Below are positions 9,723 through 26,002 of a stretch of DNA of 32,000 nucleotides, in pieces. A program made the position numbers and the translations under genes. Origin of the DNA: Promethearchaeum syntrophicum (GTDB lineage Archaea; Asgardarchaeota; Lokiarchaeia; Sigyniarchaeales; Promethearchaeaceae); the NCBI RefSeq assembly GCF_008000775.2, contig NZ_CP042905.2:600001-632000 (forward strand). Reading direction: 5' to 3'. The notes under the pieces were generated by a model. That model made no database searches, had not been told where the DNA came from, and saw only the letters and a program-made list of their open reading frames with translations. Each line of letters opens with the position of its first letter. Within the stretch, counting starts at the first letter, position 1.

Positions 9723-9974
9723 ATGGCTAACGGTACAGTTAAATGGTTTAATGGTCGTAAAGGTTTTGGTTTTATCACTCCTGCTGAAGGAGAAAAAGAC
9801 GTTTTCGTTCATTACAGTGCTATTCAAGTTGCAGAGAATGAATTTGCAACCTTAAACGAGAACGATGAAGTAGAGTACGAAGTAGTTGAGGGAGAAAAAG
9901 GCTTAGAAGCAAAGAACGTCACAATTACAAAGAAAGCACCTTATCAACCTCGAAATAGAAGAAATAACTATTAA
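9723..9974 (+). CDS. csp: Cold-shock domain protein (CspA family) with basic C-terminal tail
   Basis: 83 aa. [17 protein letters not shown] (RNP1-like KGFGFI) and DVFVHYSAI (RNP2-like VFVH). The tail is [14 protein letters not shown]. Confidence 0.9.
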
Positions 9975-10103
9975 GATTTAAGTATTTAGATTTAGTAATA
10001 AAATAAAATATTTATGCTGAAATTTTTGATTGAATGTATGGCATTACAATGCCCCTGAGATTTACCCTGTTGGGGTGGATTTATTTTTAGTTTTTTCCTA
10101 TAA
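9971..10103. repeat. Direct repeat R1 (left boundary of island); csp downstream/terminator region
   Basis: ttaagatttaagtatttag..tttatgctgaaatttttgattgaatgtatggcattacaatgcccctgagatttaccct..ggggtggatttattttt recurs at 22311-22434. By eye there are about 6 substitutions plus a 6-nt and a 5-nt indel. Confidence 0.9.
10040..10096 (+). terminator. Putative csp terminator: two short hairpins followed by T-runs
   Basis: ggcat-taca-atgcc (10040-10053), then accc-tgttg-gggt (10064-10076), then ttatttttagtttttt. Oligo-T tracts are known archaeal termination signals. The stems are short. Confidence 0.35.
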
Positions 10104-10105
10104 TC

Positions 10106-10168
10106 TTACTTATAATTTAAATTGAGTTGGTAGATTCTCCCAGTAGATGCCCAGAGCGACCTGTTTTT
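10106..10168 (-). pseudogene. Scrap homologous to the 3' end of the GNAT gene at 22438..22980
   Basis: ataatttaaattgagttggtagattctcccagtagatgcccagagcgacc aligns by eye with agaatttaatctgtgagtgaatattctcccagaagaaacccaaagcatcc (22440-22490). Similarity decays after about 60 nt. Confidence 0.5.
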
Positions 10169-10202
10169 AATTATTGGTTATGCTACACTTTACATGTAAA
10201 CA

Positions 10203-10271
10203 GAGGTAGAGTACGAAGTCGTTGAGGGAGAGAATGGTCTTTATCAATTTTGGAATAGAAAATTTATTTAG
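10203..10271 (+). pseudogene. Detached 3'-end fragment of a divergent csp allele
   Basis: It reads [22 protein letters not shown], against the intact csp [34 protein letters not shown]. Nucleotide identity is obvious (gtagagtacgaagt.gttgagggaga). It is 36 nt shorter, in frame, and has its own stop at 10269-10271. Confidence 0.7.
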
Positions 10272-10295
10272 GTAGAGAAAAAATTTAATAATGAG

Positions 10296-11921
10296 ATGCA
10301 ATTAAATGCACTACATTTCTCGGACTTACATTTTGGGCAATATAATTTAAAAGAAGAAGAAAAGAAGAGAGGAGATTTTGATAATTTCTTTTCCAATTTG
10401 CTACTTCAGTTGAAGAAAATTATTGTATCAGAGAAAATAAACCTAATCATCATATCTGGGGATTTTTGTTCAAGAAATCAATTTGAGGAGGATATCTTGA
10501 TTTCTTCAAACAAATATCTCGATGAATTTATAAACGTTTTCAAAGAAAAAGACATTTCAGTATTAATTTGTATAGGTAATCATGAAATTTCTCGTTCAAT
10601 GGATCATTCAAAAAGACAGAAATTATACTTTGAATTAATAAATCACATAAAAAAAGATCTAAATATCAATTTTTCAAAAAATTTTAATCGAAATATAATA
10701 TCATATAAGATTTTCAAACAACAACAAAAAATTTTCTTTAGCATGGATAGTACCTTCAGTTTGACAAAAGAAGGGGAATGGGAAAATTCAAGTTTAAATC
10801 TGAAGGATATAGATGAATTTCTTAATGAAATAAATTCCCAAATAAATCTAACAAATTATGATAAATACATTATATCTCATCATGGACTTTTAGACATGCC
10901 CAATAATCAAGATATAATCGAAGGTTTACATGCTCGAAAAATCTATTACATATTTTCAGGACACAAACATGATAAATATTACATACCTTTTCATATTCCT
11001 GGAGAAAAACTACCTATTAATAATTATATTGCTGGGTCAATTCTTCTTTCTCAAAAACGGAGAGCAGAATCAAAATCTTGGATTCCCGCAGATCTTCAAT
11101 TTAATCAATATTCTTTTGAAAAAAGTTATAGTAAAGATATTGTTAATGCTTGGTATTGGCGTTATAATTCAAATGCACGATGGGTTAAAGAAGAATTAAA
11201 AATAAATCGAGAAGATAATGGTACTAAATGCGGAATTTTTTCTCAAATGGTTCCAAATTATAAAGAATCTTTTGATTTCCTTCTTGATATTAATCAAAAA
11301 TTTGATGAAAATTCTCAATGTATTACCAGTTGGGAAGATATAAACAAAGATATTCTGAATTTTTCTCAAAAAATTCATAATAATAATAAATTAAAAAAGA
11401 TTTTATTTGATGGGAATACGCACCTCTCAATAGGGTTCTCATTCGGGTATCAATTTAGACAAACAACTGGATATAAAATTTCGTACAAAAATCAATTAAC
11501 TAATCAAACATGGAATCTTGAAGAATTGAATTTTTCGGAAATAGGTCCAGATTTGGAAATAGATGTTGATATCGGCGATGAAGATAATAAATATTCAGTT
11601 ATAATAATTAATATTGGAAGTCGTGATGTAGTAAATCCAACTAAAGAATATCTTCTGAATAAAAAAATCAAATTTGAGAAATTGTTAAGTTTCAAATATT
11701 CACCAACCCTAACTACTCAAATAATTACTCCACTAATAAATTCCATAATTGATACAATTTCAAATGAGATTTCGAATTATAAAAAATATTATTTGTTTAT
11801 TGCTGGTCCACTTGCATTTTTTGGATTGTTGGCTACAAAATTTAATATGATAACACCATTACAATTACATGAATTTAGCCGAACAGAGAAAAATTATTTT
11901 CCAAGCATGTTGTTAATTTAA
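10296..11921 (+). CDS. CBASS effector candidate: calcineurin-like metallophosphoesterase fused to a C-terminal SAVED-like sensor domain
   Basis: 541 aa. The MPE motifs occur in order: FSDLHFG (DxH), IISGDF (GD), CIGNHE (GNHE), ISHHG, FSGHKHD (GHxH). The C-terminal ~200 aa end in KKYYLFIAGPLAFFGLLATKFN..LQLHEF, the hallmark SAVED ending. The gene lies directly upstream of the CD-NTase. Confidence 0.7.
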   Translation: MQLNALHFSDLHFGQYNLKEEEKKRGDFDNFFSNLLLQLKKIIVSEKINLIIISGDFCSRNQFEEDILISSNKYLDEFINVFKEKDISVLICIGNHEISRSMDHSKRQKLYFELINHIKKDLNINFSKNFNRNIISYKIFKQQQKIFFSMDSTFSLTKEGEWENSSLNLKDIDEFLNEINSQINLTNYDKYIISHHGLLDMPNNQDIIEGLHARKIYYIFSGHKHDKYYIPFHIPGEKLPINNYIAGSILLSQKRRAESKSWIPADLQFNQYSFEKSYSKDIVNAWYWRYNSNARWVKEELKINREDNGTKCGIFSQMVPNYKESFDFLLDINQKFDENSQCITSWEDINKDILNFSQKIHNNNKLKKILFDGNTHLSIGFSFGYQFRQTTGYKISYKNQLTNQTWNLEELNFSEIGPDLEIDVDIGDEDNKYSVIIINIGSRDVVNPTKEYLLNKKIKFEKLLSFKYSPTLTTQIITPLINSIIDTISNEISNYKKYYLFIAGPLAFFGLLATKFNMITPLQLHEFSRTEKNYFPSMLLI

Positions 11922-11990
11922 ATTAATAAACCACAAAACCACATTTTTATAAATTCAAGTTTTATTTTGAATAATAAGGGGTAAAAAAAA

Positions 11991-12977
11991 ATGGCAAAAA
12001 CTGTATCTGCTGCTTTTGAAGAATTTAAAACTTTAATTGAGCCATCTCCAGAAGAAAGGAAAAAAATTATTACTCGACATGAATATATTCGCAATAATAT
12101 ATCAGAATTCATTACTCTTGATAAGAACAATAGTAGTTTTCTATCAGGTTCTTATATTAGATCTACTCAGATAACACCCGTAAATGATGTTGACATAGTA
12201 TTGGTTTTAGACAAAGATACTTATTATGATAAATATAAAACTGAAATTGTAAAACTATTAGAACATATAAAACGAATGTTGAAAAAACTTGGAAATTATC
12301 AGACAACAGAAATGCGAAAACAAACTCATTCTATTGGGATGTTGTTAAGACATGGAGCGAAAGTAGATATTGTTCCTGCATTTTTAAAGAATTCGGAAGA
12401 AAACATATATGAAATACTTGATAAGGATAAGAATTGCTATATCGAAACCGCTCCACAGAATCATAAAGAATTGATTTCAAATTATAATAAAGAAATCAAT
12501 AACTTCATTCCAGTAGTCAAAATGTTAAAAAATTGGAAAAATACTATAAATAATCAACTAATTAATGATAAGTTCAAGATAAAATCTTTTCATTTAGAAT
12601 TGTTAGCGATAAATGCAATTAATAATAGTTTCAGTGGATACCGTGATGGAATAATTCAATTTTTCCAAAATGCAGAACAATTAACCCTAAAAAAGTTAGA
12701 AGATCCATTAGGTATTAGTGGAGATATTTCTTCATATTTATCATCTGAACAAAAAAAAACTTTAAATGAAAAAATAGAAGCAATTAACGAAAAAATCAAT
12801 AAATTACGTGATTATGAATCAAAGGGAGAACATCAAAAAGCAATTTCTGGGTGGAGACAGATTCTCGGTCACCCATTCCCAGATAAAGAAAAATCAACAT
12901 CCCAGAATAATCAAACTCAAGAAAAAAGAGAGACAAAACATCCAAAACATGGGAAGAATTATATATTTGGGAAATAA
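11991..12977 (+). CDS. cdn: cGAS/DncV-like nucleotidyltransferase (CD-NTase, SMODS-type)
   Basis: 328 aa. Pol-beta NTase core LSGSYIRSTQITPVNDVDIVLVLD (GS...DxD; Asp codons 12186-12188 and 12192-12194) with the third acidic residue in GAKVDIVPAF. Followed by Cap2 and Cap3. Long polar C-terminal tail ending ..NYIFGK. Confidence 0.85.
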   Translation: MAKTVSAAFEEFKTLIEPSPEERKKIITRHEYIRNNISEFITLDKNNSSFLSGSYIRSTQITPVNDVDIVLVLDKDTYYDKYKTEIVKLLEHIKRMLKKLGNYQTTEMRKQTHSIGMLLRHGAKVDIVPAFLKNSEENIYEILDKDKNCYIETAPQNHKELISNYNKEINNFIPVVKMLKNWKNTINNQLINDKFKIKSFHLELLAINAINNSFSGYRDGIIQFFQNAEQLTLKKLEDPLGISGDISSYLSSEQKKTLNEKIEAINEKINKLRDYESKGEHQKAISGWRQILGHPFPDKEKSTSQNNQTQEKRETKHPKHGKNYIFGK

Positions 12978-12986
12978 AATATTAAA

Positions 12987-14792
12987 ATGAATCGAACTCA
13001 ATATTTGAAATTATTAAATAATCTATCTACATTGAAAGATGGGTATAATATTAAACAAATTTCATATGGAAAGAATAAAATAATTAGCGCTCGGTTTAGA
13101 TATGGGGAAAATGATATTAAATATGCCAAAATATTTATATCAGACGAATTTCCTCTAATTCCTCCAAAGGTATGGTTGTTTGATGATATAAGATTAGAAA
13201 AAATATCAGATTTTCAATGGACTACTCATAAGAATTCTGACGATTCAATTTGTTTATTTACTGGATCGTTAAGTGATAATAGCTGGCGTTATCAAGATTC
13301 AATTTTTAAAATCTTTTTAAAAATCGAAGCTTTTCTCACTCAATGCCTTTCCAATACGATATCAGACGATCATTCAACTATATTCTATCCTGTACCAGGA
13401 AGACCTCAAGATCCTGTAGTTTTTATGTTTTATGAGGACTTTCATGAAGCTAAGAAAAATTCTGAAAATGAATTATTTCTATATTCGTTTTTAGACAATA
13501 GACCTGCGTTTTTACTTACATTAAAAAAAAATAAAAATGATTTTGATGTGATTAAAGAAAAATATGGATGGATTATTAATCCATATTATCAAAAAGCGTA
13601 TATTGTATTTTTAAATACAAATATATTAGATTTTAGAAGAAATTTAAAAGGTGAAATTAATTTTGAGAAAATTGTATCAGAATATTTAGAAGAGAATATC
13701 AATCTCTCAAATTATGATTATTTTGCCTTTTTTTTTAAAGATAGTGTCATTTCCGATGAACTCATTATAAAAACTTCCCAATTCAATCCTCTTTTATCCT
13801 ATCTATATGATTTAAAAGGAAAGAAGTTTGAAAATATTAATAAAATTCCTCATTTTAAAATAATCGGATTTAACCCTACTTATGATCTTTATCAAAGAAC
13901 TTATGGAGTTTTAGAAAAAATGATTGATTCAATTGAAGAAAAATCTTTATTAATTATAGGACTTGGTTCTATGGGCTCAACAATTGCGCTTGAATTGGCT
14001 AAATCAGGATTCAGGAAATTTAGTTTAGTAGATCCAGATATCCTAAATCCAGTGAACGTTTGCAGACATATTGGATTTTTATCAGATATTGGGAAACACA
14101 AAGTAGAGATTGTTAGAGAACAGATTATGCAAAAAAATCCATATGCAGATGTTGTTCCCTATCCAAATGATTTATTTTTGAACAAAAACTTGCCAATCTT
14201 AGCACATCTTATCAAAGAATCCGATATAATTATTGATACGACCGCAGTTGAATCTGTTGGTATGCTGATAAATAAATTTGCATTAGAGTTAAATAAAGTA
14301 GCTATTTATTGTTATTGTTATCGTAATGCTATTCTTGGAAGAATTTTTAAAGTAATTCCAAAAAGAACTCCTTGTTATAGTTGTGTTCAACAGAGTTTAA
14401 TGAAAGACGAAGGTTATTTTTCTAGTTTGGGAAAAAATTCTTCCGAGGATGATGATTTGAATGGAAATGTATATTTCGAAGGATATTCTGAACCAGGGAT
14501 ACCTGGAATAAGTATCGATATTAATTTTGTAAATTTATTTGTATGCAAATTCATTATTGAAACGTTAAAAAAAGAATTACATCAAATTCCGATGTTAAAA
14601 GCAGATCATTATTTGTGGCAAAATTCCCCAACTAAGTATGGAAATGAGCAGGTTGGTTTTATTCCTATTGGTGACGAAATTCAAAAGGATCGAAACTGTA
14701 AGTTTTGTGGATCTTCTTTAAAATTACAGAATTCTGGAAAACATCGTAAAACCGAACAAAAGATCCAAAAACTCGAAAAAAAACTTAAATAA
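12987..14792 (+). CDS. cap2: Cap2: fused E2-like (UBC) and E1-like (ThiF/MoeB adenylation) enzyme
   Basis: 601 aa. E2 signatures: FPLIPPKVWLF (compare eukaryotic YPxxPPKVxF) and TTHKNSDDSICLF (HxN...C). E1 Rossmann: LLIIGLGSMGSTIALELAKSGFRKFSLVDPDILNPVNVCRHIG. Cys pairs: CYSC and CKFCG. Confidence 0.9.
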   Translation: MNRTQYLKLLNNLSTLKDGYNIKQISYGKNKIISARFRYGENDIKYAKIFISDEFPLIPPKVWLFDDIRLEKISDFQWTTHKNSDDSICLFTGSLSDNSWRYQDSIFKIFLKIEAFLTQCLSNTISDDHSTIFYPVPGRPQDPVVFMFYEDFHEAKKNSENELFLYSFLDNRPAFLLTLKKNKNDFDVIKEKYGWIINPYYQKAYIVFLNTNILDFRRNLKGEINFEKIVSEYLEENINLSNYDYFAFFFKDSVISDELIIKTSQFNPLLSYLYDLKGKKFENINKIPHFKIIGFNPTYDLYQRTYGVLEKMIDSIEEKSLLIIGLGSMGSTIALELAKSGFRKFSLVDPDILNPVNVCRHIGFLSDIGKHKVEIVREQIMQKNPYADVVPYPNDLFLNKNLPILAHLIKESDIIIDTTAVESVGMLINKFALELNKVAIYCYCYRNAILGRIFKVIPKRTPCYSCVQQSLMKDEGYFSSLGKNSSEDDDLNGNVYFEGYSEPGIPGISIDINFVNLFVCKFIIETLKKELHQIPMLKADHYLWQNSPTKYGNEQVGFIPIGDEIQKDRNCKFCGSSLKLQNSGKHRKTEQKIQKLEKKLK

Positions 14793-14812
14793 TTTAATAT
14801 GGGTGCTTTGAA

Positions 14813-15271
14813 ATGAAAAGAAAGAAACTTCAATTTTCAACAGAAATTATTCATCAGCTATTTGCTGAAATAAAAAATGAAAGAGTTGAGAATTGTGGTG
14901 CTTTAATAGGAAAGCAAATAGATAGCACTTTGTTTAGAGTGACTAATTATGTTAAAGATGATAAACCAATATTTCAATCAAGATTCAACATTCAACGGAA
15001 TACGAATAATTTATATCATTTGATTAATGAAATTGTTAAAAAAAAAGAAGAAGAAGTTGATTATATAGGTGAGTGGCACTCACACCCAAATTCTTCATGT
15101 ATTTATAGTCAAATCGATTTTCTAACCATGAATATGATGATTAATGACCCTGATTACTCCTTTTTAAATGAGATCATACTATTTATTGTAGGAAAAAACC
15201 GTTGTATGAATGCTTTTCTTTTTAGTAAGTCTCGAAATCGACCTATTTCATTAAAAATAATTGTAAAATAA
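14813..15271 (+). CDS. cap3: Cap3: JAB/JAMM (MPN+) isopeptidase
   Basis: 152 aa. Upstream Glu in VENCGALIG, and the JAMM motif GEWHSHPNSSCIYSQIDFLT (HxHx7Sx2D). Confidence 0.9.
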   Translation: MKRKKLQFSTEIIHQLFAEIKNERVENCGALIGKQIDSTLFRVTNYVKDDKPIFQSRFNIQRNTNNLYHLINEIVKKKEEEVDYIGEWHSHPNSSCIYSQIDFLTMNMMINDPDYSFLNEIILFIVGKNRCMNAFLFSKSRNRPISLKIIVK

Positions 15272-15352
15272 TATCAGATTTTTCAATTATGAGAAAAATT
15301 TCTTACTCTTGATTCATAGGGAAGGTAATTTTTATATTACAATGAATAAACA

Positions 15353-17260
15353 ATGAATATGAGTTTCATTCTTAAAAAGATAAAAATAGAAAATTATAGA
15401 TGTTTTAAGGAATTCGAGTTCGATTTATGTGAGTTTAATACAATTGTTGGGAAAAATGCAACAGGAAAATCTTCTTTACTCTATGCTATTAATGAAATTA
15501 ATAATGAAAAGCTTTCTAAAGAGACAATTTATAATGATTATAAAGAAAATGAAATCCAAAGAATTTCTTTCTTTTTTTCAGGAATTATAGAAAATTCCTC
15601 TATAAAAATTCGAGATCCAATTCTGATTTTAACTGACGAGGGTTATAAAATAACGTATTTCGAACTGTTTCTAAAAATATCAGAAGTTAAAATGATAAGT
15701 CCCAAAGAAAATTTTCGGTATAATGGAACAAATGAGAGTTTAAAACAAGTAAAACTACAAAATCTTTTGGAAATTAAAAATAAAAAGGAATTTATTTTTC
15801 AATCAAAAGATTGGAATCCAATTCATGAAGTTAAGTCCAAATTTAATTTTATATTGAAAAATTGGACTCTCCCAAGTCTAATTTTTTTTATTGACAGCAA
15901 AGCTATACTACAAACTCATGATTTTAGTAAAATTGAAAGCTCTTCTAATTTCAAAGAAATTCTAATTGATTTAGCCAGACCAAAGGTAATTTTCTTTAGT
16001 GAAAATATTTTGAATCAAAATATTAATTCAAGTTATAATTTTTTATCGTTTAATGAAAACTTCAACTTTACACTGAAACTTCTGAAATTAGGAGAAATTG
16101 ATCGAGAAAAGTTTCAGAAATTAAGTGAAAGTGCAAAAGAAAATATGATTGAGAACATTGAAGCAAAATTTAATGAAATTTTTCTTAATCAACCATATCC
16201 AGTATCTATGATCCAATTTTCATTTCAATTCATTAAAGATAACTTTAGTTTCAAACCTAGATTGAAGAATGGTAAAAAAATTGAATTTGAAAACCTTAGT
16301 GCAGGTCTTCGATGGTTATATACGTTTATCTTGGTTTTCTTTGATCCGTTGATTCATGATGATATAATTGAAAAATTTGATCATAGAATTATTTTGATAG
16401 ATGAACCGGGGAAAAACATCCATCCAGAGGCACAAATGGAAGTGCTAGAATATTTAAAACTCATGAATAAAAACAACCAAATAATTTATTCTACACATAT
16501 GCCCTTTTTAATTGATTATTCCAACCCAAATAGTGTTCAATGTATTTCCTATGTTCAAAATACTCAAAAGCACGAAATTTCTAATGGAAAAGCGTCGGAT
16601 TTAAAAATACGAATTGCAGATGCAATTGGATTACCTAAAGAAAGATTTCTAACATTTCCAGAAAAGATTCTCCTTGTGGAAGGTCCAAGTGATAGAGTAT
16701 TTATTGAAAGAATAAATGAGTATTTTCATGAAATAAATAACAAATTAGCACAATCATCGGAAATTGAGATTTGGTTTTACCATGGTCTTTCTGAAATTAA
16801 TCATCTTTGCAAACTTTTTGATAGTTGGAAAAGAAGGAATTTTCTTCTTCTATATGATGATGATACTGATCTATTTTCCAAAGGAAAGGTAAAAGATCCA
16901 AAAGATGAACCTGAAGTACAGAAATTTCGCCGTAATATTGTGAAATTAACACACCCCGCTATAAAAAAGAATATTGCAATAGAAGATTTTATTCCACGAA
17001 CTTTATTTAATTCAACGTTAAAAAAATGGTTAAAGAGTTATGGGTATGAGAAAGATTTTCTCAAAGATGTGCAAAACGATATTAAAGATCCACAAGTAAA
17101 TCAAAGTCAAATTATTTCCAGATTAGAAAAAGAAGAACAATTGAGTAAGTTAGAATTCATTAAACTCATATTTGAAACTGAAAATCAGAAATTATTTACT
17201 GAAAATTTGAAAATAGTATATCTATTTCAATTAATTACTGAAAAATTTAGAAAAATATAG
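15353..17260 (+). CDS. OLD-family nuclease: N-terminal ABC-type ATPase plus C-terminal Toprim domain
   Basis: 635 aa. KIKIENYRCFKEFEFDL..NTIVGKNATGKSSLLYAI (Walker A), LSAGLRWLYTFIL (signature-like), RIILIDEPGKNIHPEAQ (Walker B), IIYSTHMPFLI (H-loop). Toprim: KILLVEGPSDRVFIE, then FLLLYDDDTD, then IEDFIP. Confidence 0.8.
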   Translation: MNMSFILKKIKIENYRCFKEFEFDLCEFNTIVGKNATGKSSLLYAINEINNEKLSKETIYNDYKENEIQRISFFFSGIIENSSIKIRDPILILTDEGYKITYFELFLKISEVKMISPKENFRYNGTNESLKQVKLQNLLEIKNKKEFIFQSKDWNPIHEVKSKFNFILKNWTLPSLIFFIDSKAILQTHDFSKIESSSNFKEILIDLARPKVIFFSENILNQNINSSYNFLSFNENFNFTLKLLKLGEIDREKFQKLSESAKENMIENIEAKFNEIFLNQPYPVSMIQFSFQFIKDNFSFKPRLKNGKKIEFENLSAGLRWLYTFILVFFDPLIHDDIIEKFDHRIILIDEPGKNIHPEAQMEVLEYLKLMNKNNQIIYSTHMPFLIDYSNPNSVQCISYVQNTQKHEISNGKASDLKIRIADAIGLPKERFLTFPEKILLVEGPSDRVFIERINEYFHEINNKLAQSSEIEIWFYHGLSEINHLCKLFDSWKRRNFLLLYDDDTDLFSKGKVKDPKDEPEVQKFRRNIVKLTHPAIKKNIAIEDFIPRTLFNSTLKKWLKSYGYEKDFLKDVQNDIKDPQVNQSQIISRLEKEEQLSKLEFIKLIFETENQKLFTENLKIVYLFQLITEKFRKI

Positions 17261-17575
17261 TTTAATGATCAGAATATATAAGAAACCAACCTTTTTTATC
17301 CATTTACTAAATTTAGTGATGAAAGTCTTTATCAATTTTATTACAGATTATATTGTTTACAAAATTAGTAAGTGAAAAATAGAATCCCAATCTTCCAAAA
17401 ATTCATTAAACAAAATTATATTTTTAATAACGATTAAATAATAATTCGGTTTCGGAATTTGGTTTCAAACTACTCATTTTTTTGAAGAAACATTAAAAAG
17501 AATTAGGTTTGAAAGAATATATTTTAGTAAAATCATAGTAATATTTTTTTATAATAAATATAACTTGTATATAAA

Positions 17576-18742
17576 ATGGATCAAAATAAAAATAGAGATG
17601 CTAATATCATTGAAGCGTTTATGTGCAAGTGTATCAAAAGTAATCCTAAAAATTATAATTTATTCTGGCTTTGTGATGATGATGGTCTTTCAGCGAAGAA
17701 TGATATTATTACAATAATAAAATCTATGCTTGGTGAAAATAATATTCTTTTTATTTCACTCAATGATATTAATTCGGATTATATTCTGCATGATAATAAT
17801 TCTCTATTTTCACTTTTTGTAAGGATTCCCCAACCTCATGAAAATCATTCACTTGAATTAAGTGGCCTTATGAAAATTATCGATAATATGAATATTAAGT
17901 TTAAATTGAATAATGGAAATTTAATTGATACAAAGATCTATTTTCAGATAACATTAATATCAGATTTTGATCCTTTCATATATATAAAGAAAAAAGACTA
18001 CAGTTGGGTAATTTCAAATATTATTTTCATCAAGATTTTTAAAAGAATGGAATTTGGCATCACAAATAAAATCATTAAAAAGGAATTAGATGGTATTTTT
18101 TCATATTTAATTAATTCAGTGTTTCATGAAGCAGATAATATTATTTCTGATCAAAAACAATTCCAGATTTTATTTTCAAACTATTTAACAGAAATTCTTC
18201 CTGATATAAATCTTGAATCTCATATTGAAAATATTAAAAACGAAATAATGAACAGAATCAACTTAAATGAAATCATTCAGAATCACCTGATGGAACGGGT
18301 ATTGAACTGTATTCTCTCTTTTTATAGTGCTCATCAAGTAGAACCATTATTTGAATCTGGAAAAAAAGTATTTGAGAAAGAATTTCACAAAAGAGTTTAC
18401 TCTCATCTCTATCCTCTCTTAGGAACAAATATTGAAAATCATAAGAAAGTGGGCAAAGGAGATATTGATTTTTTAATATATAATTATCCTCTAGATGTTA
18501 AAGTTGAAGAAAAAGATCAGAAATTGGAGGAGATATATTTAAATCATAAAGATCAAATAATCCAATATTGTTATTACCGAAAGGAAAGAGTAGGTTTTCT
18601 TTTAGTATACGAAAATACGATAAAGAAACCAAATTTTGAGAAAAAAGATTACAAGGTATTCCAAGAAGATGGAATTTATGTAATAATCATTCTTTTGCGT
18701 GGTAATTTTCCATATCCAAGTAAAATGAAATCTCAAAAATGA
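17576..18742 (+). CDS. Uncharacterised protein with C-terminal PD-(D/E)xK nuclease-like motif set; N-terminus weakly resembles a degenerate P-loop NTPase
   Basis: 388 aa. C-terminus: EKEFHKRVYSHLYPLLG..GKGDIDFLIYNYPLDVKVEEK..DQIIQYCYY, which gives E, D, DxK and QxxxY in canonical order. N-terminus: NLFWLCDDDGLSAKNDIITIIKSMLGENN sits where P4/D5-type NTPases carry GxGxNGKST...LxG. Preceded by a 315-nt AT-rich gap. Confidence 0.5.
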   Translation: MDQNKNRDANIIEAFMCKCIKSNPKNYNLFWLCDDDGLSAKNDIITIIKSMLGENNILFISLNDINSDYILHDNNSLFSLFVRIPQPHENHSLELSGLMKIIDNMNIKFKLNNGNLIDTKIYFQITLISDFDPFIYIKKKDYSWVISNIIFIKIFKRMEFGITNKIIKKELDGIFSYLINSVFHEADNIISDQKQFQILFSNYLTEILPDINLESHIENIKNEIMNRINLNEIIQNHLMERVLNCILSFYSAHQVEPLFESGKKVFEKEFHKRVYSHLYPLLGTNIENHKKVGKGDIDFLIYNYPLDVKVEEKDQKLEEIYLNHKDQIIQYCYYRKERVGFLLVYENTIKKPNFEKKDYKVFQEDGIYVIIILLRGNFPYPSKMKSQK

Positions 18743-19125
18743 ATGAAAAAACTATTTAAATTGTTGATCTTGTTATGAATGTTAGAAAATAATTCATTAT
18801 GTAATGGTTTGAATGAGAACCTTTTTAAAAAACATGTCAAATCATTTCTATTTAAAGAAAACTATAGTATTAGTTTAGAAAATTACTTGAAATTGGTAAT
18901 AGAAATTAAAGATATATCAATCGTTTTTAATTGATTGAAATTTCGTTTAAATCAAAAAATTATAATATCTCAATATTTTTCAAGAATTTTTCATGATTTT
19001 CTTTTTCATACAACGAATTCCTTTCAGTTTTATTCTAAATGCCTCTTATTTCCGTATATTGATGATACATTGAATGAAAAAACGTTTTTAGAAAATTTAA
19101 AAAAAAGAAAAAATTCCTATAGAAT

Positions 19126-22100
19126 ATGAGTAATGAAAATCCATTTGAAGTTTATGATTTAAATGAAATATTGAAATCAGATATTCCGCATATAATACAA
19201 AAGAATAATAGTGAATTATTAGAAAATAATTTCAAATTAAATCCTCAAAATTATTCTACATATCAAATTAATATAATTCAGAATATACAAGAAAAATTGA
19301 AAAAACAAGAATTAGATATTGGAGATAAAATATTTGCATTGGAATTAATTCTAATTTCCATAGAATTAGATTTTGATATAGATAATTCAACCAAAGATTT
19401 AATATGGGAATTTATGATTAATCATATTCTTCCAACAGGTGCATTAAATTGGGAAAAGTATAAAATTCTTTTAAAAATTGTTAAAGTTGAAGATATCAGC
19501 AATATAATTGAAAAAAATCCTGCATTAAGTGAATTATTTTTTGATGCTTATCCCGAAAGAAATGCTGAATTTTTTAAAATATGCATTAAATATGAGAAAT
19601 GGGCGATAGCTCGAAAAATTTTAGAAAATTATAATAATTTGATACCCGAAAATTTAGAAGATGTAAAAAAATTGTTTGAAAATTATTATATCAATCATTC
19701 AACACTAAAGAAAATGCAAAATAATCTTGATCCATCGATTCTAAATGAATTAAATGGTATTAGAATCAAAAGAAAAGAAAATTGGATTGAACAATTACAG
19801 ATAAAATTAAAAATTATTGAGGAAGAAGGTATCAATCCGAAAAAAGATATGTATCAGTTACAATATAATTTATCATTTATAATAGACACTTTTTCAGGAT
19901 TAGAACTTGAAAAAATTTCTATAGATTGTCTTAATGCTTTAAAAAATCCATCAAATGATAGGTGGGTCAATATGATTTTATTAGAAATTATATTTTTTAA
20001 TAGTAAGATTATCTCTTCCTTAATCCCTCGCATTGAGGAGTATGGTTTTGAAAATCTTCTTTTTTTTTATTATTACAATAATCCTGATTTACTTCTAGGT
20101 AAACAAACTTCTTGGTTCGTTAAATACAAAGATCGAGGATTAGATATTGCAAAAATTTACCTAAGTCGGTTAGGATACGAAAATAGACCTACTATGCATT
20201 TATTTTCATTATTTATTTCTAATGATTTTCAACCAATTGAAGCTCTTCTAGAATTATGTTTGACAAATTCTTCCACTAAATCAGAAATCCAAGAAATAAT
20301 AATGGAAAAAATAATATCCATAGATTTTTCAAGAATTAAAGAAATTCCTAATGGGATCTCTTATTTGACTATTCTACTTAATAATCATGGCTTTTCCGAA
20401 TGGTACTTTAAATTTCCGATAGACTTTTCTATAAAGAAAATATTAGAATTAAAAGACAATTGCGAAGAACTACATGAATTTCTCAATGGGACAACATTTT
20501 GGGATATTGTAAGCAGAATGGAGTCCAAATTCCATCAATTTTTTATTAACCTTCTTATTGATAAGAACCAAAAGTCTATTTTATATTTAATTGATTCATA
20601 TCCTGAAATATTTATGGCAAATATTGATATTTTTATCACTAAAATCTCTGAAAGAGATAATATGACTTCAAGTGATTTGAAAATTATTAATTTACTTTTA
20701 AAAAAGAAATCAATTTCATTTACTATAGGAAAAGATTTGAATAAATTTATTGAAATGAAACAACTAAATTATCAAAAAGTAAGATTGTTGCACACATTGG
20801 GAAAATATTCTGAATTAATTGATTTAATTATAGAATTGATGAATCTTCCTTACATTAATCCAAAATTCAAGATAATATTGTGGTTGGATTATATTTCATT
20901 ATGCCTAGAATATTCATTAGAAGATCTAAACGAAGAATTTGTTAAACAATTAATATTTTCCATTAATAATTGTTATGAAAAGAGTAAATCCGCTTTTTCT
21001 CATAATGATTGGGATTTTTTTCTCAAATATTATTATATAATTGGTAGATTATATCTTGTGCAATATCAAAAAAATCCAGATGAAGATAAAAATCATTTAC
21101 TTGAAAAATCAAAACAATTATTTATTGAAGGATTAAAATATTCTACTGATATTGAAACAAACTCTCTTCTTTCAGAATTAATTATTGTAACAGAAATCGA
21201 TCTCAGTGCAAAATCTCTAAAAAAAGATATTACAAAGTTTACACATTTATCATTATTAAATGATTTTTTGATTAGAACTAATCCTCCTCTTTTTTCAATA
21301 GAAAGAAATATATTGACTGCTTGCTTCCATCTTGAAATTGCAGAAAAAAATAGCAAAAATCCTCTATTTAGCTGGGATAAAAATAAAAAACTTATATACA
21401 CATGGGATTATTTACCTCCTTTTGATGAAAAATCTCCTCTTTTTAGGTTAATGATACATAAATCAATAATAACTGAAAAATTACAAAATTATTCTCTATT
21501 AATTAGAAGTAAATTGAAGATTAACGAAGAAAATGAAATTCCCATTTCGATGGGAGTGCAATCAGATTGGTATGTTGCAGAATTTAAATTAAATTTATTC
21601 GATGTTGATTCTTTATCTGCATTTGAACTATTTTTCAAAAAAAAGGATGATTTTCCTTCTTATGAAGCAAATCTTCCTTTAATAGGTAAAATTATTCCAA
21701 AAGAAATGCATTTAATGGAACTAATCGAAAGAGAAATTGTATTATGCTGTGAAATAATTCAAAATAGGCATATTATATTAAAAAAAAATTTAGAAATTCC
21801 TTTAAATGATTTATTGACTGATTTTTTAAGACAAGGACTTAAAACATACAATATTGATGTTAATCAAGAACAGAGAGGTGGAAAATCTAAAAAGATTGAA
21901 GGAGAAATAGATATATCTTTCTATTATCAAGGAGGGCATCGTATTACTATTTTAGAAGCATTATTATATAACAACACTCATGTAGAACATTATGAGAAAT
22001 TGGTCAAAAATTATGATGCTATTGGTCGATTAAGAAATTTCATTTTAATTTATTATATTGGTGATAGTTTCTACCAATTTGTTGAAAACTACAAAGAAAA

Positions 22101-22248
22101 TATATCTAAATCTAAAATATTTGAAAGATTTGAACCATATAGGCGAACTTTTGATTCCACAGAAATACGAATTTTAAAATCAATTCAGAAGAATTTTAAT
22201 TCTAAATTTAATGTCATTCATTTTATTGTACACTTAAGAAATCCTTGA
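19126..22248 (+). CDS. Large (1040 aa) uncharacterised, apparently all-helical protein with C-terminal nuclease-like domain related to that of the 388-aa neighbour
   Basis: Long uninterrupted ORF with no P-loop or other catalytic motif in the first ~900 aa. The C-terminus IEGEIDISFYYQGGHRITILEALLYNN..HYEKLVKNY..FILIYYIGD parallels GKGDIDFLIYNYPLDVKVEEK..QIIQY..GFLLVYENT in the neighbour. Confidence 0.5.
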   Translation: MSNENPFEVYDLNEILKSDIPHIIQKNNSELLENNFKLNPQNYSTYQINIIQNIQEKLKKQELDIGDKIFALELILISIELDFDIDNSTKDLIWEFMINHILPTGALNWEKYKILLKIVKVEDISNIIEKNPALSELFFDAYPERNAEFFKICIKYEKWAIARKILENYNNLIPENLEDVKKLFENYYINHSTLKKMQNNLDPSILNELNGIRIKRKENWIEQLQIKLKIIEEEGINPKKDMYQLQYNLSFIIDTFSGLELEKISIDCLNALKNPSNDRWVNMILLEIIFFNSKIISSLIPRIEEYGFENLLFFYYYNNPDLLLGKQTSWFVKYKDRGLDIAKIYLSRLGYENRPTMHLFSLFISNDFQPIEALLELCLTNSSTKSEIQEIIMEKIISIDFSRIKEIPNGISYLTILLNNHGFSEWYFKFPIDFSIKKILELKDNCEELHEFLNGTTFWDIVSRMESKFHQFFINLLIDKNQKSILYLIDSYPEIFMANIDIFITKISERDNMTSSDLKIINLLLKKKSISFTIGKDLNKFIEMKQLNYQKVRLLHTLGKYSELIDLIIELMNLPYINPKFKIILWLDYISLCLEYSLEDLNEEFVKQLIFSINNCYEKSKSAFSHNDWDFFLKYYYIIGRLYLVQYQKNPDEDKNHLLEKSKQLFIEGLKYSTDIETNSLLSELIIVTEIDLSAKSLKKDITKFTHLSLLNDFLIRTNPPLFSIERNILTACFHLEIAEKNSKNPLFSWDKNKKLIYTWDYLPPFDEKSPLFRLMIHKSIITEKLQNYSLLIRSKLKINEENEIPISMGVQSDWYVAEFKLNLFDVDSLSAFELFFKKKDDFPSYEANLPLIGKIIPKEMHLMELIEREIVLCCEIIQNRHIILKKNLEIPLNDLLTDFLRQGLKTYNIDVNQEQRGGKSKKIEGEIDISFYYQGGHRITILEALLYNNTHVEHYEKLVKNYDAIGRLRNFILIYYIGDSFYQFVENYKENISKSKIFERFEPYRRTFDSTEIRILKSIQKNFNSKFNVIHFIVHLRNP

Positions 22249-22310
22249 AACTTTCATATATTTATAATAATAAATTTTCTCACATTTTTTTGCTTTTATC
22301 ATTTCATTTT

Positions 22311-22434
22311 TTAAGATTTAAGTATTTAGTAATAAAATATTTATGCTGAAATTTTTGATTGAATGTATGGCATTACAATGCCCCTGAGATTTACCCTACT
22401 GGGGTGGATTTATTTTTCGCTTTTTCCTATTATA
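22311..22434. repeat. Direct repeat R2 (right boundary of island); intergenic region upstream of the GNAT stop
   Basis: Copy of 9971-10103. It contains the same hairpins (ggcattacaatgcc at 22369-22382) and T-runs, and ends 3 nt before the GNAT stop codon (22438-22440). Confidence 0.9.
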
Positions 22435-22437
22435 TAA

Positions 22438-22980
22438 CTAGAATTTAATCTGTGAGTGAATATTCTCCCAGAAGAAACCCAAAGCATCCAATTTCTTTCC
22501 TCCATAAGTGAGAGTTTTATGAAATTTTGGAATACCCCCCATTTTGAGATAGAAATTACATGCAGAATTATCCTTCAACGCCCAAATAACCATTGTTTTA
22601 TAATTCATATCTAAGAAAGATTTAACTATTGCATTGAAAAGTAATGTGCCTATTCCTTGTTTCCAGTATTTAGGAAGAATATAAATCGCGTTTAGGTCAC
22701 CGTCGATATCATAATCATCATAAGAACTCCGACCACCCATGGAAAACCCGACAATATCAGTTCTATATTGAGAAGAAATTTCTGCCACAAACATTTCCTT
22801 CTTGTTTTTACCCAAATTTCTAATTCTTTGTGACCATGCCGGAATTTTATCAACTATAGAACGAGAATCTAGATAATCTTGAGGAATTATGCCTTTATAC
22901 GCTACTTTCCACGTGTTAATATTGATAGATGCAATAGCTGAGGCATCAGAAACAACTGCTTTTCTAATCGATACATTCAT
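22438..22980 (-). CDS. GNAT-family N-acetyltransferase
   Basis: 180 aa. IVGFSMGG.. and ILPKYWKQGIGTLLFNAIV (the Q/RxxGxG/A acetyl-CoA motif). Confidence 0.85.
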   Translation of the reverse strand: MNVSIRKAVVSDASAIASININTWKVAYKGIIPQDYLDSRSIVDKIPAWSQRIRNLGKNKKEMFVAEISSQYRTDIVGFSMGGRSSYDDYDIDGDLNAIYILPKYWKQGIGTLLFNAIVKSFLDMNYKTMVIWALKDNSACNFYLKMGGIPKFHKTLTYGGKKLDALGFFWENIHSQIKF

Positions 22981-25537: not shown

Positions 25538-26002
25538 ATGAAGTTTTCAAAACTTATTCAAAAAAAGCAGAAAAAACCATCTAAAAAGTTCAAAAAACCT
25601 AAAGGAGCAATTTGGATTTTCTTCAGCTACACCACAAAAGATCTCAAAGAATTTCATATTAAAGGACTGGCAAAGGCTCTTGAGAAATATGATGAGTATG
25701 ATCAAGTTCTGATTTTGAAAGAAAAAACCACAGATAGTATTATTGAAAACATGGATTTTTATATTAAAAATGTAAATGCTTTGGTGCTCTTTTGTAGTAA
25801 AAGTTCAAAAATATCTGAAGCGGTTCAAAACGAATGGGAATCGGCAGAAGCTATAGGGATACCAATTATTCCAGTATTTAAAACTACTAATCACGTACCC
25901 GCACTTCTAAGGGCGAAAAATGGAGTTAATTTCACAAAAAATCCCCTACAAAATACAATAAATAAATTACATGAAAATCTCCAGCGAAAAATAATAAAAT
26001 AA
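25538..26002 (+). CDS. Small TIR-like domain protein with polybasic N-terminus
   Basis: 154 aa. KKQKKPSKKFKKPKG is followed by IWIFFSYTTKD, ALVLFCSKSSKISEAVQNEWESA and IPIIPVF. This is the TIR_2-type pattern (FxSYxxxD ... S.W...E ... iiPV). Confidence 0.6.
   Translation: MKFSKLIQKKQKKPSKKFKKPKGAIWIFFSYTTKDLKEFHIKGLAKALEKYDEYDQVLILKEKTTDSIIENMDFYIKNVNALVLFCSKSSKISEAVQNEWESAEAIGIPIIPVFKTTNHVPALLRAKNGVNFTKNPLQNTINKLHENLQRKIIK

Follow-up and report, generated by a model that had tools for sequence, protein, structure and literature searches.

A giant Asgard protein with a helical body and a terminal effector-type domain: a candidate single-chain sensor-effector of prokaryotic conflict

The gene and its island

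P0001 is a protein of 1040 amino acids encoded by the final gene of a low-GC island in the Asgard archaeon Promethearchaeum syntrophicum. The whole stretch of DNA that was analysed, here called the window, comprises 32,000 nucleotides (G000:C1:600001-632000), and the positions given below for P0001, its island and its neighbours follow whole-window numbering. The host genome is a single contig of 4.32 Mb with a guanine-plus-cytosine (GC) content of 31.1%, and the gene content of the window, which includes leucine-rich repeat (LRR), TIR, LVIVD, PFOR and rubrerythrin genes, points like its relatives to an Asgard archaeon. The open reading frame (ORF) of P0001, which an earlier reading of the sequence (the original prediction) had singled out, is present as described and has a GC content of 24%; because a stop is expected every ~10.5 codons at such a composition, the chance of 1040 stop-free codons is ~1e-45 (log10 P = -45), and P0001 is a genuine gene. 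It is present once in its own genome, and its 388-residue upstream neighbour, P0002, is likewise single-copy.

The island (10111-22330; 12.3 kb, 25.6% GC) has direct repeats on both flanks, R1 and R2 (Table 1), the core of which, as found by the repeat search, lies at 10002-10110 and 22331-22439 with an identity of 94%. The stop codon of P0001 precedes the start of R2 (22311) by exactly 62 nt, and the gene is, as had been proposed, the last cargo gene of the island. All island genes are on the + strand, in the order metallophosphoesterase-SAVED effector, CD-NTase, E1-E2 and JAB, which together constitute a type II cyclic-oligonucleotide-based antiphage signalling system (CBASS), followed by an OLD-like gene, P0002 and P0001. 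The gap between the OLD-like gene and P0002 is 316 nt, and that between P0002 and P0001 is 384 nt. No integrase is present in the island.

Table 1. Position of P0001, its modules and candidate active-site residues, its neighbours and the flanking repeats in the window
Feature	Position	Strand	Basis
R1, left direct repeat	9971-10110		alignment extension of repeat-search core
OLD-like AAA_15/AAA_21 ATPase with TOPRIM, 635 aa, upstream neighbour	15353..17260	+	family-model matches
P0002, 388 aa; C-terminal half a canonical RecB-like PD-(D/E)xK core	17576..18742	+	homologue alignment
P0001 ORF, 1040 aa plus stop, final island gene	19126..22248	+	ORF call
N-terminal module, residues ~8-809, common to a small family of Asgard giants	19147..21552	+	BLASTP, hidden Markov model (HMM), shuffle control, AlphaFold2 (AF2)
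C-terminal effector-type domain, residues ~855-1039, unnamed family	21688..22242	+	45 HMMER matches, profile A4, AF2
E890, at the start of core helix 1; acidic residue, invariant or nearly so	21793..21795	+	family alignments
D929 in G-E-x-D, N-terminus of second core strand; candidate 'PD' aspartate	21910..21912	+	alignments, AF2
E944-A945-L946, third core strand; Glu invariant, canonical-Lys position L/F/M in relatives	21955..21963	+	alignments
H955-Y-E-K958, next helix; invariant His and Lys, the latter a candidate for the migrated catalytic lysine	21988..21999	+	alignments
R2, right direct repeat, partner of R1	22311..22439		alignment extension of repeat-search core

The C-terminal domain and its family

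An exhaustive HMMER scan of 1.84 billion representatives returned 45 proteins at E <= 1e-3 (best 1e-8), all of which align to residues ~860-1040 of P0001 only and always by way of their own C-terminus. These relatives are 150-740 residues long, and their N-termini include LRR, Roc-COR and pentapeptide repeats. A profile of the domain (A4) matches P0001 with an E-value of 2.8e-43, and Pfam has no model for the C-terminal domain of this family; a word-indexed homologue search with another domain alignment (A2) gave 2 matches only. Matches to Corona_NS2A, a 2H phosphoesterase, in three near-identical homologues were below threshold and were taken as noise.

The family signature consists of E890 (in E-D-x-x-N-D), a D-Q-T-R-x-G-x-S loop, G926-E-x-D929, h-h-E944-A-(L/F/M), H955-x-x-K958-L, Y963-D964 and Y989. 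In an alignment of 23 sequences the residues E890, G919, G926, D929, E944, H955, K958, L959, Y963, D964 and Y989 are invariant, and P0001 carries 11 of the 11. With the Asgard members added, I942, E944, H955, K958, Y963 and Y989 are still invariant, and D929 is found in at least 90% of the sequences. The original prediction had pointed out that the position expected for (D/E)xK lacks its lysine, reading L-E944-A-L946-L, which is correct, and had suggested that the lysine might come from the stretch HYEKLVKNY or that the domain might be dead. Among ~65 relatives E-A-(L/F/M) stands in all, and H955-x-x-K958 of the next helix is kept in all. Lysine at Glu+2 occurs in no family member, and therefore the 'missing lysine' is ancestral to the family; judged from these alignments, E-A-L in P0001 is characteristic of the conserved family as a whole and not the result of decay.

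Predicted fold and a candidate displaced lysine

The AF2 model of the C-terminal domain, computed with the family multiple sequence alignment, has a predicted local distance difference test score (pLDDT) of 79 and a predicted TM-score (pTM) of 0.77. Its elements follow one another as helix, helix (890-908), strand, strand (929-934), strand (939-947), helix (952-961), strand (970-977), helix and three strands, an alpha-alpha-beta-beta-beta-alpha-beta-alpha-beta-beta-beta topology that contains the alpha-beta-beta-beta-alpha-beta order of the restriction-endonuclease fold. The model places D929 at the start of strand 2, E944 within strand 3, and H955 and K958 on the second core helix. Of the marks of the PD-(D/E)xK superfamily, the aspartate at the N-terminus of strand 2 and the acidic residue in strand 3 are found (D929 and E944), and leucine occupies position 946, where a lysine would follow the strand-3 acidic residue by two. 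In the PD-EXX-K variant of the superfamily, represented by Pa4535 (PDB 1y0k), the lysine has moved into the adjacent second core helix (Steczkiewicz et al., PMC3424549), and K958 of the next helix could substitute for the canonical lysine in the same way; with this precedent, and with H955 and K958 invariant in every aligned relative, the earlier guess about HYEKLVKNY is supported by the alignments, as is the nuclease-like character that had been predicted for the domain. To judge by the model, the domain most likely has a restriction-endonuclease (PD-(D/E)xK) fold, and we infer that its chemistry would be that of a nuclease, namely metal-dependent phosphodiester cleavage.

A number of observations weigh against this assignment. 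A Foldseek search with the domain model gave nothing at E <= 1e-3 in the PDB (best 0.034) or in the viral library BFVD (best 0.0024), and the TM-scores of its matches are at most 0.5. The weak matches of highest probability include restriction endonucleases (DrdV, 0.85, TMt 0.43; EcoT38I, 0.82; a phage 'restriction endonuclease', 0.93), but RPB5 and, by E-value, tyrosine phosphatases rank alongside them. Sequence profiles connect the domain with no PD-(D/E)xK family and with no structure that has been solved: P0001 had no credible match in Pfam, and neither P0001 nor profile A4 had one among PDB sequences. P0001 itself reads N-Q-E-Q-R at the near-invariant D-Q loop, its sole departure from the family signature. 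Because no Foldseek match is significant and restriction endonucleases appear only weakly alongside other folds, the fold is something that we infer rather than a result.

The same observations could be read to mean that the domain is an effector but no nuclease, that is, another hydrolase, an enzyme directed at nucleotides or metabolites, or an oligomerising death-type module that happens to be built as an alpha/beta sandwich. Such a reading would account for the lack of a significant Foldseek match and for unrelated tyrosine phosphatases coming out on top by E-value; neither the invariant His-x-x-Lys nor the Tyr-Asp pair nor the D-Q-T-R-x-G-x-S loop belongs to the canonical features of restriction endonucleases, and nucleotide-directed enzymes (PNP, PRTase-CE) fill the same slot in related architectures. 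However, the order E, D, E on helix 1, strand 2 and strand 3 fits the PD-(D/E)xK core exactly, restriction endonucleases recur as high-probability matches in two independent libraries, and the CX5R phosphatase motif is absent, the tyrosine phosphatase matches having been set aside as noise (TM < 0.3). We consider a non-nuclease effector unlikely, while granting it real weight.

Where the C-terminal domain occurs

When one genome per species was scanned, the domain was located at 21 loci, mostly in Bacteroidota but also in Vibrio splendidus, Spirochaetota, Omnitrophota and one Peribacteria metagenome-assembled genome (MAG). At the 20 loci with a readable frame it forms the extreme C-terminus of proteins of 224-925 residues, and the architecture is LRR plus domain in 12 of the 20 and LRR-Roc-COR plus domain in three. 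A Spirochaetota MAG (L013:3419-8480) has a 1458-residue LRR-Roc-COR ORF that overlaps the start of a 235-residue domain-only ORF, a pair that may be one ROCO-effector broken by a split or a frameshift, or else a true two-gene form. In V. splendidus MOR1 (L016:5742-8498) a 583-residue AAA_15/AAA_21 ATPase is encoded 4 nt upstream of a 335-residue protein with a terminal P0001-type domain, and the two genes may form an ATPase-effector system of their own, in a bacterium that can be cultivated. The gene directly upstream of the domain gene encodes a STAND-type AAA protein in Omnitrophota and a reverse transcriptase in one Bacteroidota MAG. PADLOC matched no defence model to the bacterial homologues of the domain.

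Among 400 Asgard genomes the domain is present in seven besides G000. One of these, from the same order (G201), encodes a 429-residue protein in which a Cap17-like_N/TPALS domain (PF18178, residues 14-179) is joined to a P0001-type domain (238-428), directly downstream of a SMODS cyclase. In the CBASS effector Cap17, PF18178 is predicted to bind the signal, and the C-terminal domain is the toxic part (bioRxiv 10.1101/2023.01.24.525353). The locus (L042:4223-7589, minus strand) has the appearance of a CBASS-like operon, with a 388-residue protein without assignment, the SMODS cyclase (311 residues) and the TPALS fusion, an effector type that is absent from the Pfam and PADLOC models. Because it is C-terminal on LRR, LRR-Roc-COR and TPALS proteins, the domain repeatedly occupies the effector slot, and these architectures indicate a module also used by bacterial immune-type proteins.

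The N-terminal helical module

For the remainder of P0001 the original prediction had reported ~900 residues without a recognisable catalytic motif and had found them compatible with a helical solenoid. For residues 1-850 there is indeed no matching family in Pfam, NCBIfam, PADLOC or PHROGs; the models of the Pfam TPR clan give no match at E <= 0.1, and the likeness to TPR is at the level of structure only. The full-length AF2 model has ~44 helices between residues 45 and 740, and is all helical, in hairpin repeats, over ~45-690 with low to moderate confidence. The best Foldseek matches of this model are TPR/HAT solenoids, namely a chain of the Campylobacter flagellar motor scaffold (PDB 9hmf_K, E 4e-5), spliceosome chains, a chain of the yeast Ski238 complex and the Ctr9-Paf1-Cdc73 complex, in agreement with the proposed solenoid.

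A word-indexed homologue search with full-length P0001 found nothing, HMMER gave no N-terminal match, and full-length P0001 had no match among 40 relatives. The Asgard relatives were reached through the domain profile first and then through a protein in a genome of the same family (G004, L037:206-3280), of at least 1025 residues, whose 5' end is lost at a contig edge. By BLASTP it is colinear with P0001 in both parts, with 21% identity over residues 131-652 (E 5e-7) and 29% over 894-1020 (E 2e-5), and the N-terminal part scores 41.6 bits, where 200 shuffles give 19.9 +/- 2.3 (z ~9). This closest full-length relative has an extra tail of ~110 residues beyond the domain, part of which is strongly hydrophobic (Kyte-Doolittle hydropathy > 1.6 around residues 948-990) and is possibly a membrane anchor. 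A search with its N-terminus led to giants in G178 (1145 residues), G168 (1203) and G214 (1203). An HMM of the four giants has P0001 as its only match among the 3939 ORFs of the P. syntrophicum genome (E 7.5e-9, residues 10-668), whereas a profile built without G004, from the three more distant giants, has no match there, so that P0001 joins this family through G004.

A further profile (A7) matches 12 of the 400 Asgard genomes, eight of them by the N-terminal module and all within one class. The module is joined to PRTase-CE (PF24390) in G168 and G214, to a P0001-type domain in G004 and G249, and to other C-terminal ends, without assignment, in G178 and G255. In G249 (L039:4556-7891) one in-frame TGA splits the giant into ORFs of 366 and 743 residues, 10 nt apart, and could indicate a pseudogene, a sequencing error or read-through. 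The neighbours of the giants include PNP-NACHT in G168, and TPR-CHAT, DUF3800 and a second protein with a P0001-type domain in G214. PRTase-CE-like C-termini are also seen on Asgard proteins of 596-1074 residues with different N-termini (L051-L053, in G002, G192 and G188), one of these genomes being of the same genus as the window. Homology searches thus delineate what appears to be an Asgard-restricted family of proteins of 1000-1200 residues; the helical body once proposed for P0001 is supported, a sensing or scaffolding role for it is plausible, and the module probably serves as a recognition or regulatory surface.

The neighbouring genes

P0002 has seven homologues that have only its C-terminal half in common, with the invariant residues G-D-I-D298, D307-x-K309 and Q327-x-x-x-Y331, and on this alignment it is classed as a canonical RecB/Cas4-like nuclease core behind variable, unrelated N-termini (one of them LRR). 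The original prediction held that the last ~130 residues of P0001 mirror this core, that a dead domain in P0001 might pair with the active paralog next door, and that the two genes work together. Comparison of the two proteins by BLASTP gives E-values of 3-5, with 4.9 for the relevant segments; hhalign of the two family profiles gives a probability of 2% (E 0.023) over 41 columns, confined to the E...G(D/E)ID stretch; and the P0002 family profile (A1) matches in its own genome P0002 only. By these measures the resemblance is one of motif order, the two are not detectably homologous, and the supposed paralogy is not supported; nor is the notion of a dead partner, as P0001 keeps every invariant residue of its own family.

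A broader form of the same idea would make P0001 a subunit of a three-gene system with the OLD-like ATPase-TOPRIM and the P0002 nuclease, in which the helical giant scaffolds or regulates and an active/inactive nuclease pair may be included. The three genes are consecutive, on one strand and in one island, and the V. splendidus locus shows that an ATPase partnership exists in the family. Against this stand the intergenic gaps of several hundred nucleotides, the lack of detectable homology between P0001 and P0002, and the neighbourhoods of the relatives: no P0002-like or OLD-like ORF lies near the domain or the N-terminal module in the 20 bacterial loci or the Asgard loci examined, and homologues of P0002 adjoin other genes. 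The four such contexts examined (five contigs, two of them nearly identical) have TPR, TPR-TIR, deaminase, methyltransferase or unassigned neighbours, with no ATPase family recorded in any of the four and no P0001-like protein in the two contexts tested. Gabija and class 2 OLD systems have a GajA-type OLD followed by the UvrD-like helicase GajB, and here P0001 and P0002 match no helicase and no PADLOC model. The expectation of joint action is not supported, and a three-gene system is improbable; because of the Vibrio pairing, a small probability is kept for cooperation of P0001 with the OLD-like ATPase. The simplest reading is that the OLD-like gene, P0002 and P0001 are three independent modules packed into one island.

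Among the loci of P0002 homologues (L025-L029), an ORF of 141-147 residues lies just upstream in two loci, represented by three contigs, two of them near-identical; in the window, the matching 316-nt gap upstream of P0002 has no ORF of at least 70 residues. At the left margin of the island R1 begins at the stop codon of a cold-shock gene, beside it lies a scrap like the 3' end of a GNAT gene (~10111-10165), and near it is a 35-nt copy of csp coding sequence (10203-10237 versus 9867-9901). Outside the island a stand-alone TIR_2 protein of 154 residues (25538-26002) is encoded between a GNAT gene and a convergent LRR gene.

A proposed sensor and effector on one chain

The reading that we favour, with a confidence slightly better than even, takes P0001 for a prokaryotic conflict (antiviral) protein that combines sensor and effector in a single chain and most likely acts alone, its effector having the restriction-endonuclease fold and being of PD-ExxK type. 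The first ~810 residues would form a helical TPR/HAT-like repeat module that acts as a recognition or regulatory surface, and the last ~180 residues an exchangeable effector domain. Its active site would be composed of E890 on helix 1, D929 on strand 2, E944 on strand 3 and a lysine relocated to the next helix (H955-x-x-K958), so that the effector would be a 'PD-ExxK' variant rather than an inactivated nuclease. Once activated by its presumed trigger, the domain would stop the invader or the infected cell by cleaving a phosphodiester substrate, be it nucleic acid or another.

Two further points count against this view of P0001. The low confidence of the N-terminal model (mean pLDDT 62, and below 50 for residues 691-858) makes the label 'TPR-like' soft, and many bacterial homologues of the effector domain adjoin housekeeping genes (MetRS, PPDK, xanthine dehydrogenase), so that a defence context is not universal. 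One might go further and regard P0001 as a mere passenger of the island with no part in defence, for example a helical-repeat protein of cytoskeletal or scaffolding function, as no defence-family model matches it, large repeat proteins are abundant in Asgard genomes, and LRR genes occur in the window. Exchangeable C-terminal enzymatic domains, a patchy distribution (8 of 400 genomes), a low-GC island and conflict-type neighbours are nevertheless the usual marks of conflict systems, and it would be surprising if P0001 proved to be such a passenger.

A wider proposal, which we advance tentatively and hold at somewhat less than an even chance, is that one Asgard class possesses giant helical immune sensors without an NTPase, the C-terminal killing domain of which has been swapped among at least three types; one of these would be an unnamed clade of restriction-endonuclease fold with a migrated lysine, which would also be the output module in bacterial ROCO/LRR proteins, in a CBASS TPALS effector and in a pair with an AAA_15 ATPase. 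A large 'hypothetical' Asgard protein gains a defined and testable identity, the tempting reading of an active/inactive nuclease pair is corrected, and two unannotated modules are delineated. One is an effector domain common to bacterial ROCO/LRR proteins and archaeal CBASS-type effectors, and the other a sensor body confined to Asgard archaea, whose effectors are exchangeable. Should the domain prove to be a nuclease whose lysine has been relocated, it would represent a new effector class for prokaryotic immunity, and the relocation would account for its having been missed by motif-based scans; if the wider proposal holds, the domain would be a new and widely shared immune effector.

Comparison with known systems

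The predicted alpha-beta-beta-beta-alpha-beta core of the P0001 domain is like that of the PD-EXX-K variant exemplified by Pa4535 (PDB 1y0k; PMC3424549), with which it would also share an aspartate at the start of strand 2, a glutamate in strand 3, an extra glutamate on helix 1, and an invariant lysine on the second core helix instead of at Glu+2. As for differences, the domain has no significant sequence or structure match to any member of the PD-(D/E)xK superfamily, and its family has an extra invariant histidine, the Tyr-Asp pair, the D-Q-T-R-x-G-x-S loop and three added C-terminal strands. The P0002 family probably has the same superfold and resembles P0001 in its variable N-terminus, C-terminal nuclease-type domain and Asgard-type AT-rich source, but P0002 has the canonical lysine and QxxxY, and the two families have neither detectable homology nor conserved co-occurrence.

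The Asgard PRTase-CE (PF24390) giants of G168 and G214 have a homologous N-terminal module of ~900 residues, linked to P0001 via the proteins of G004 (L037) and G249 (L039); unlike in P0001, their C-terminal effector is a phosphoribosyltransferase-type domain. Cap17 combines a TPALS (PF18178) sensor with a PNP ATP nucleosidase (bioRxiv 10.1101/2023.01.24.525353), and the fusion of G201 puts a P0001-type domain where Cap17 has its toxic PNP; P0001 itself differs from Cap17 in having neither TPALS nor SAVED and in lying outside the CBASS operon of its island, the effector of which is the metallophosphoesterase-SAVED protein. In contrast to the bacterial LRR and LRR-Roc-COR (ROCO) conflict proteins (Kaur et al. 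2020, PMC7159879), P0001 has no LRR, GTPase or other NTPase, its body being an apparently Asgard-restricted helical module. It nevertheless resembles them in two respects, in that the identical domain family stands in the effector position in 15 of the 20 bacterial homologues, and in that sensor and effector would be carried on one polypeptide.

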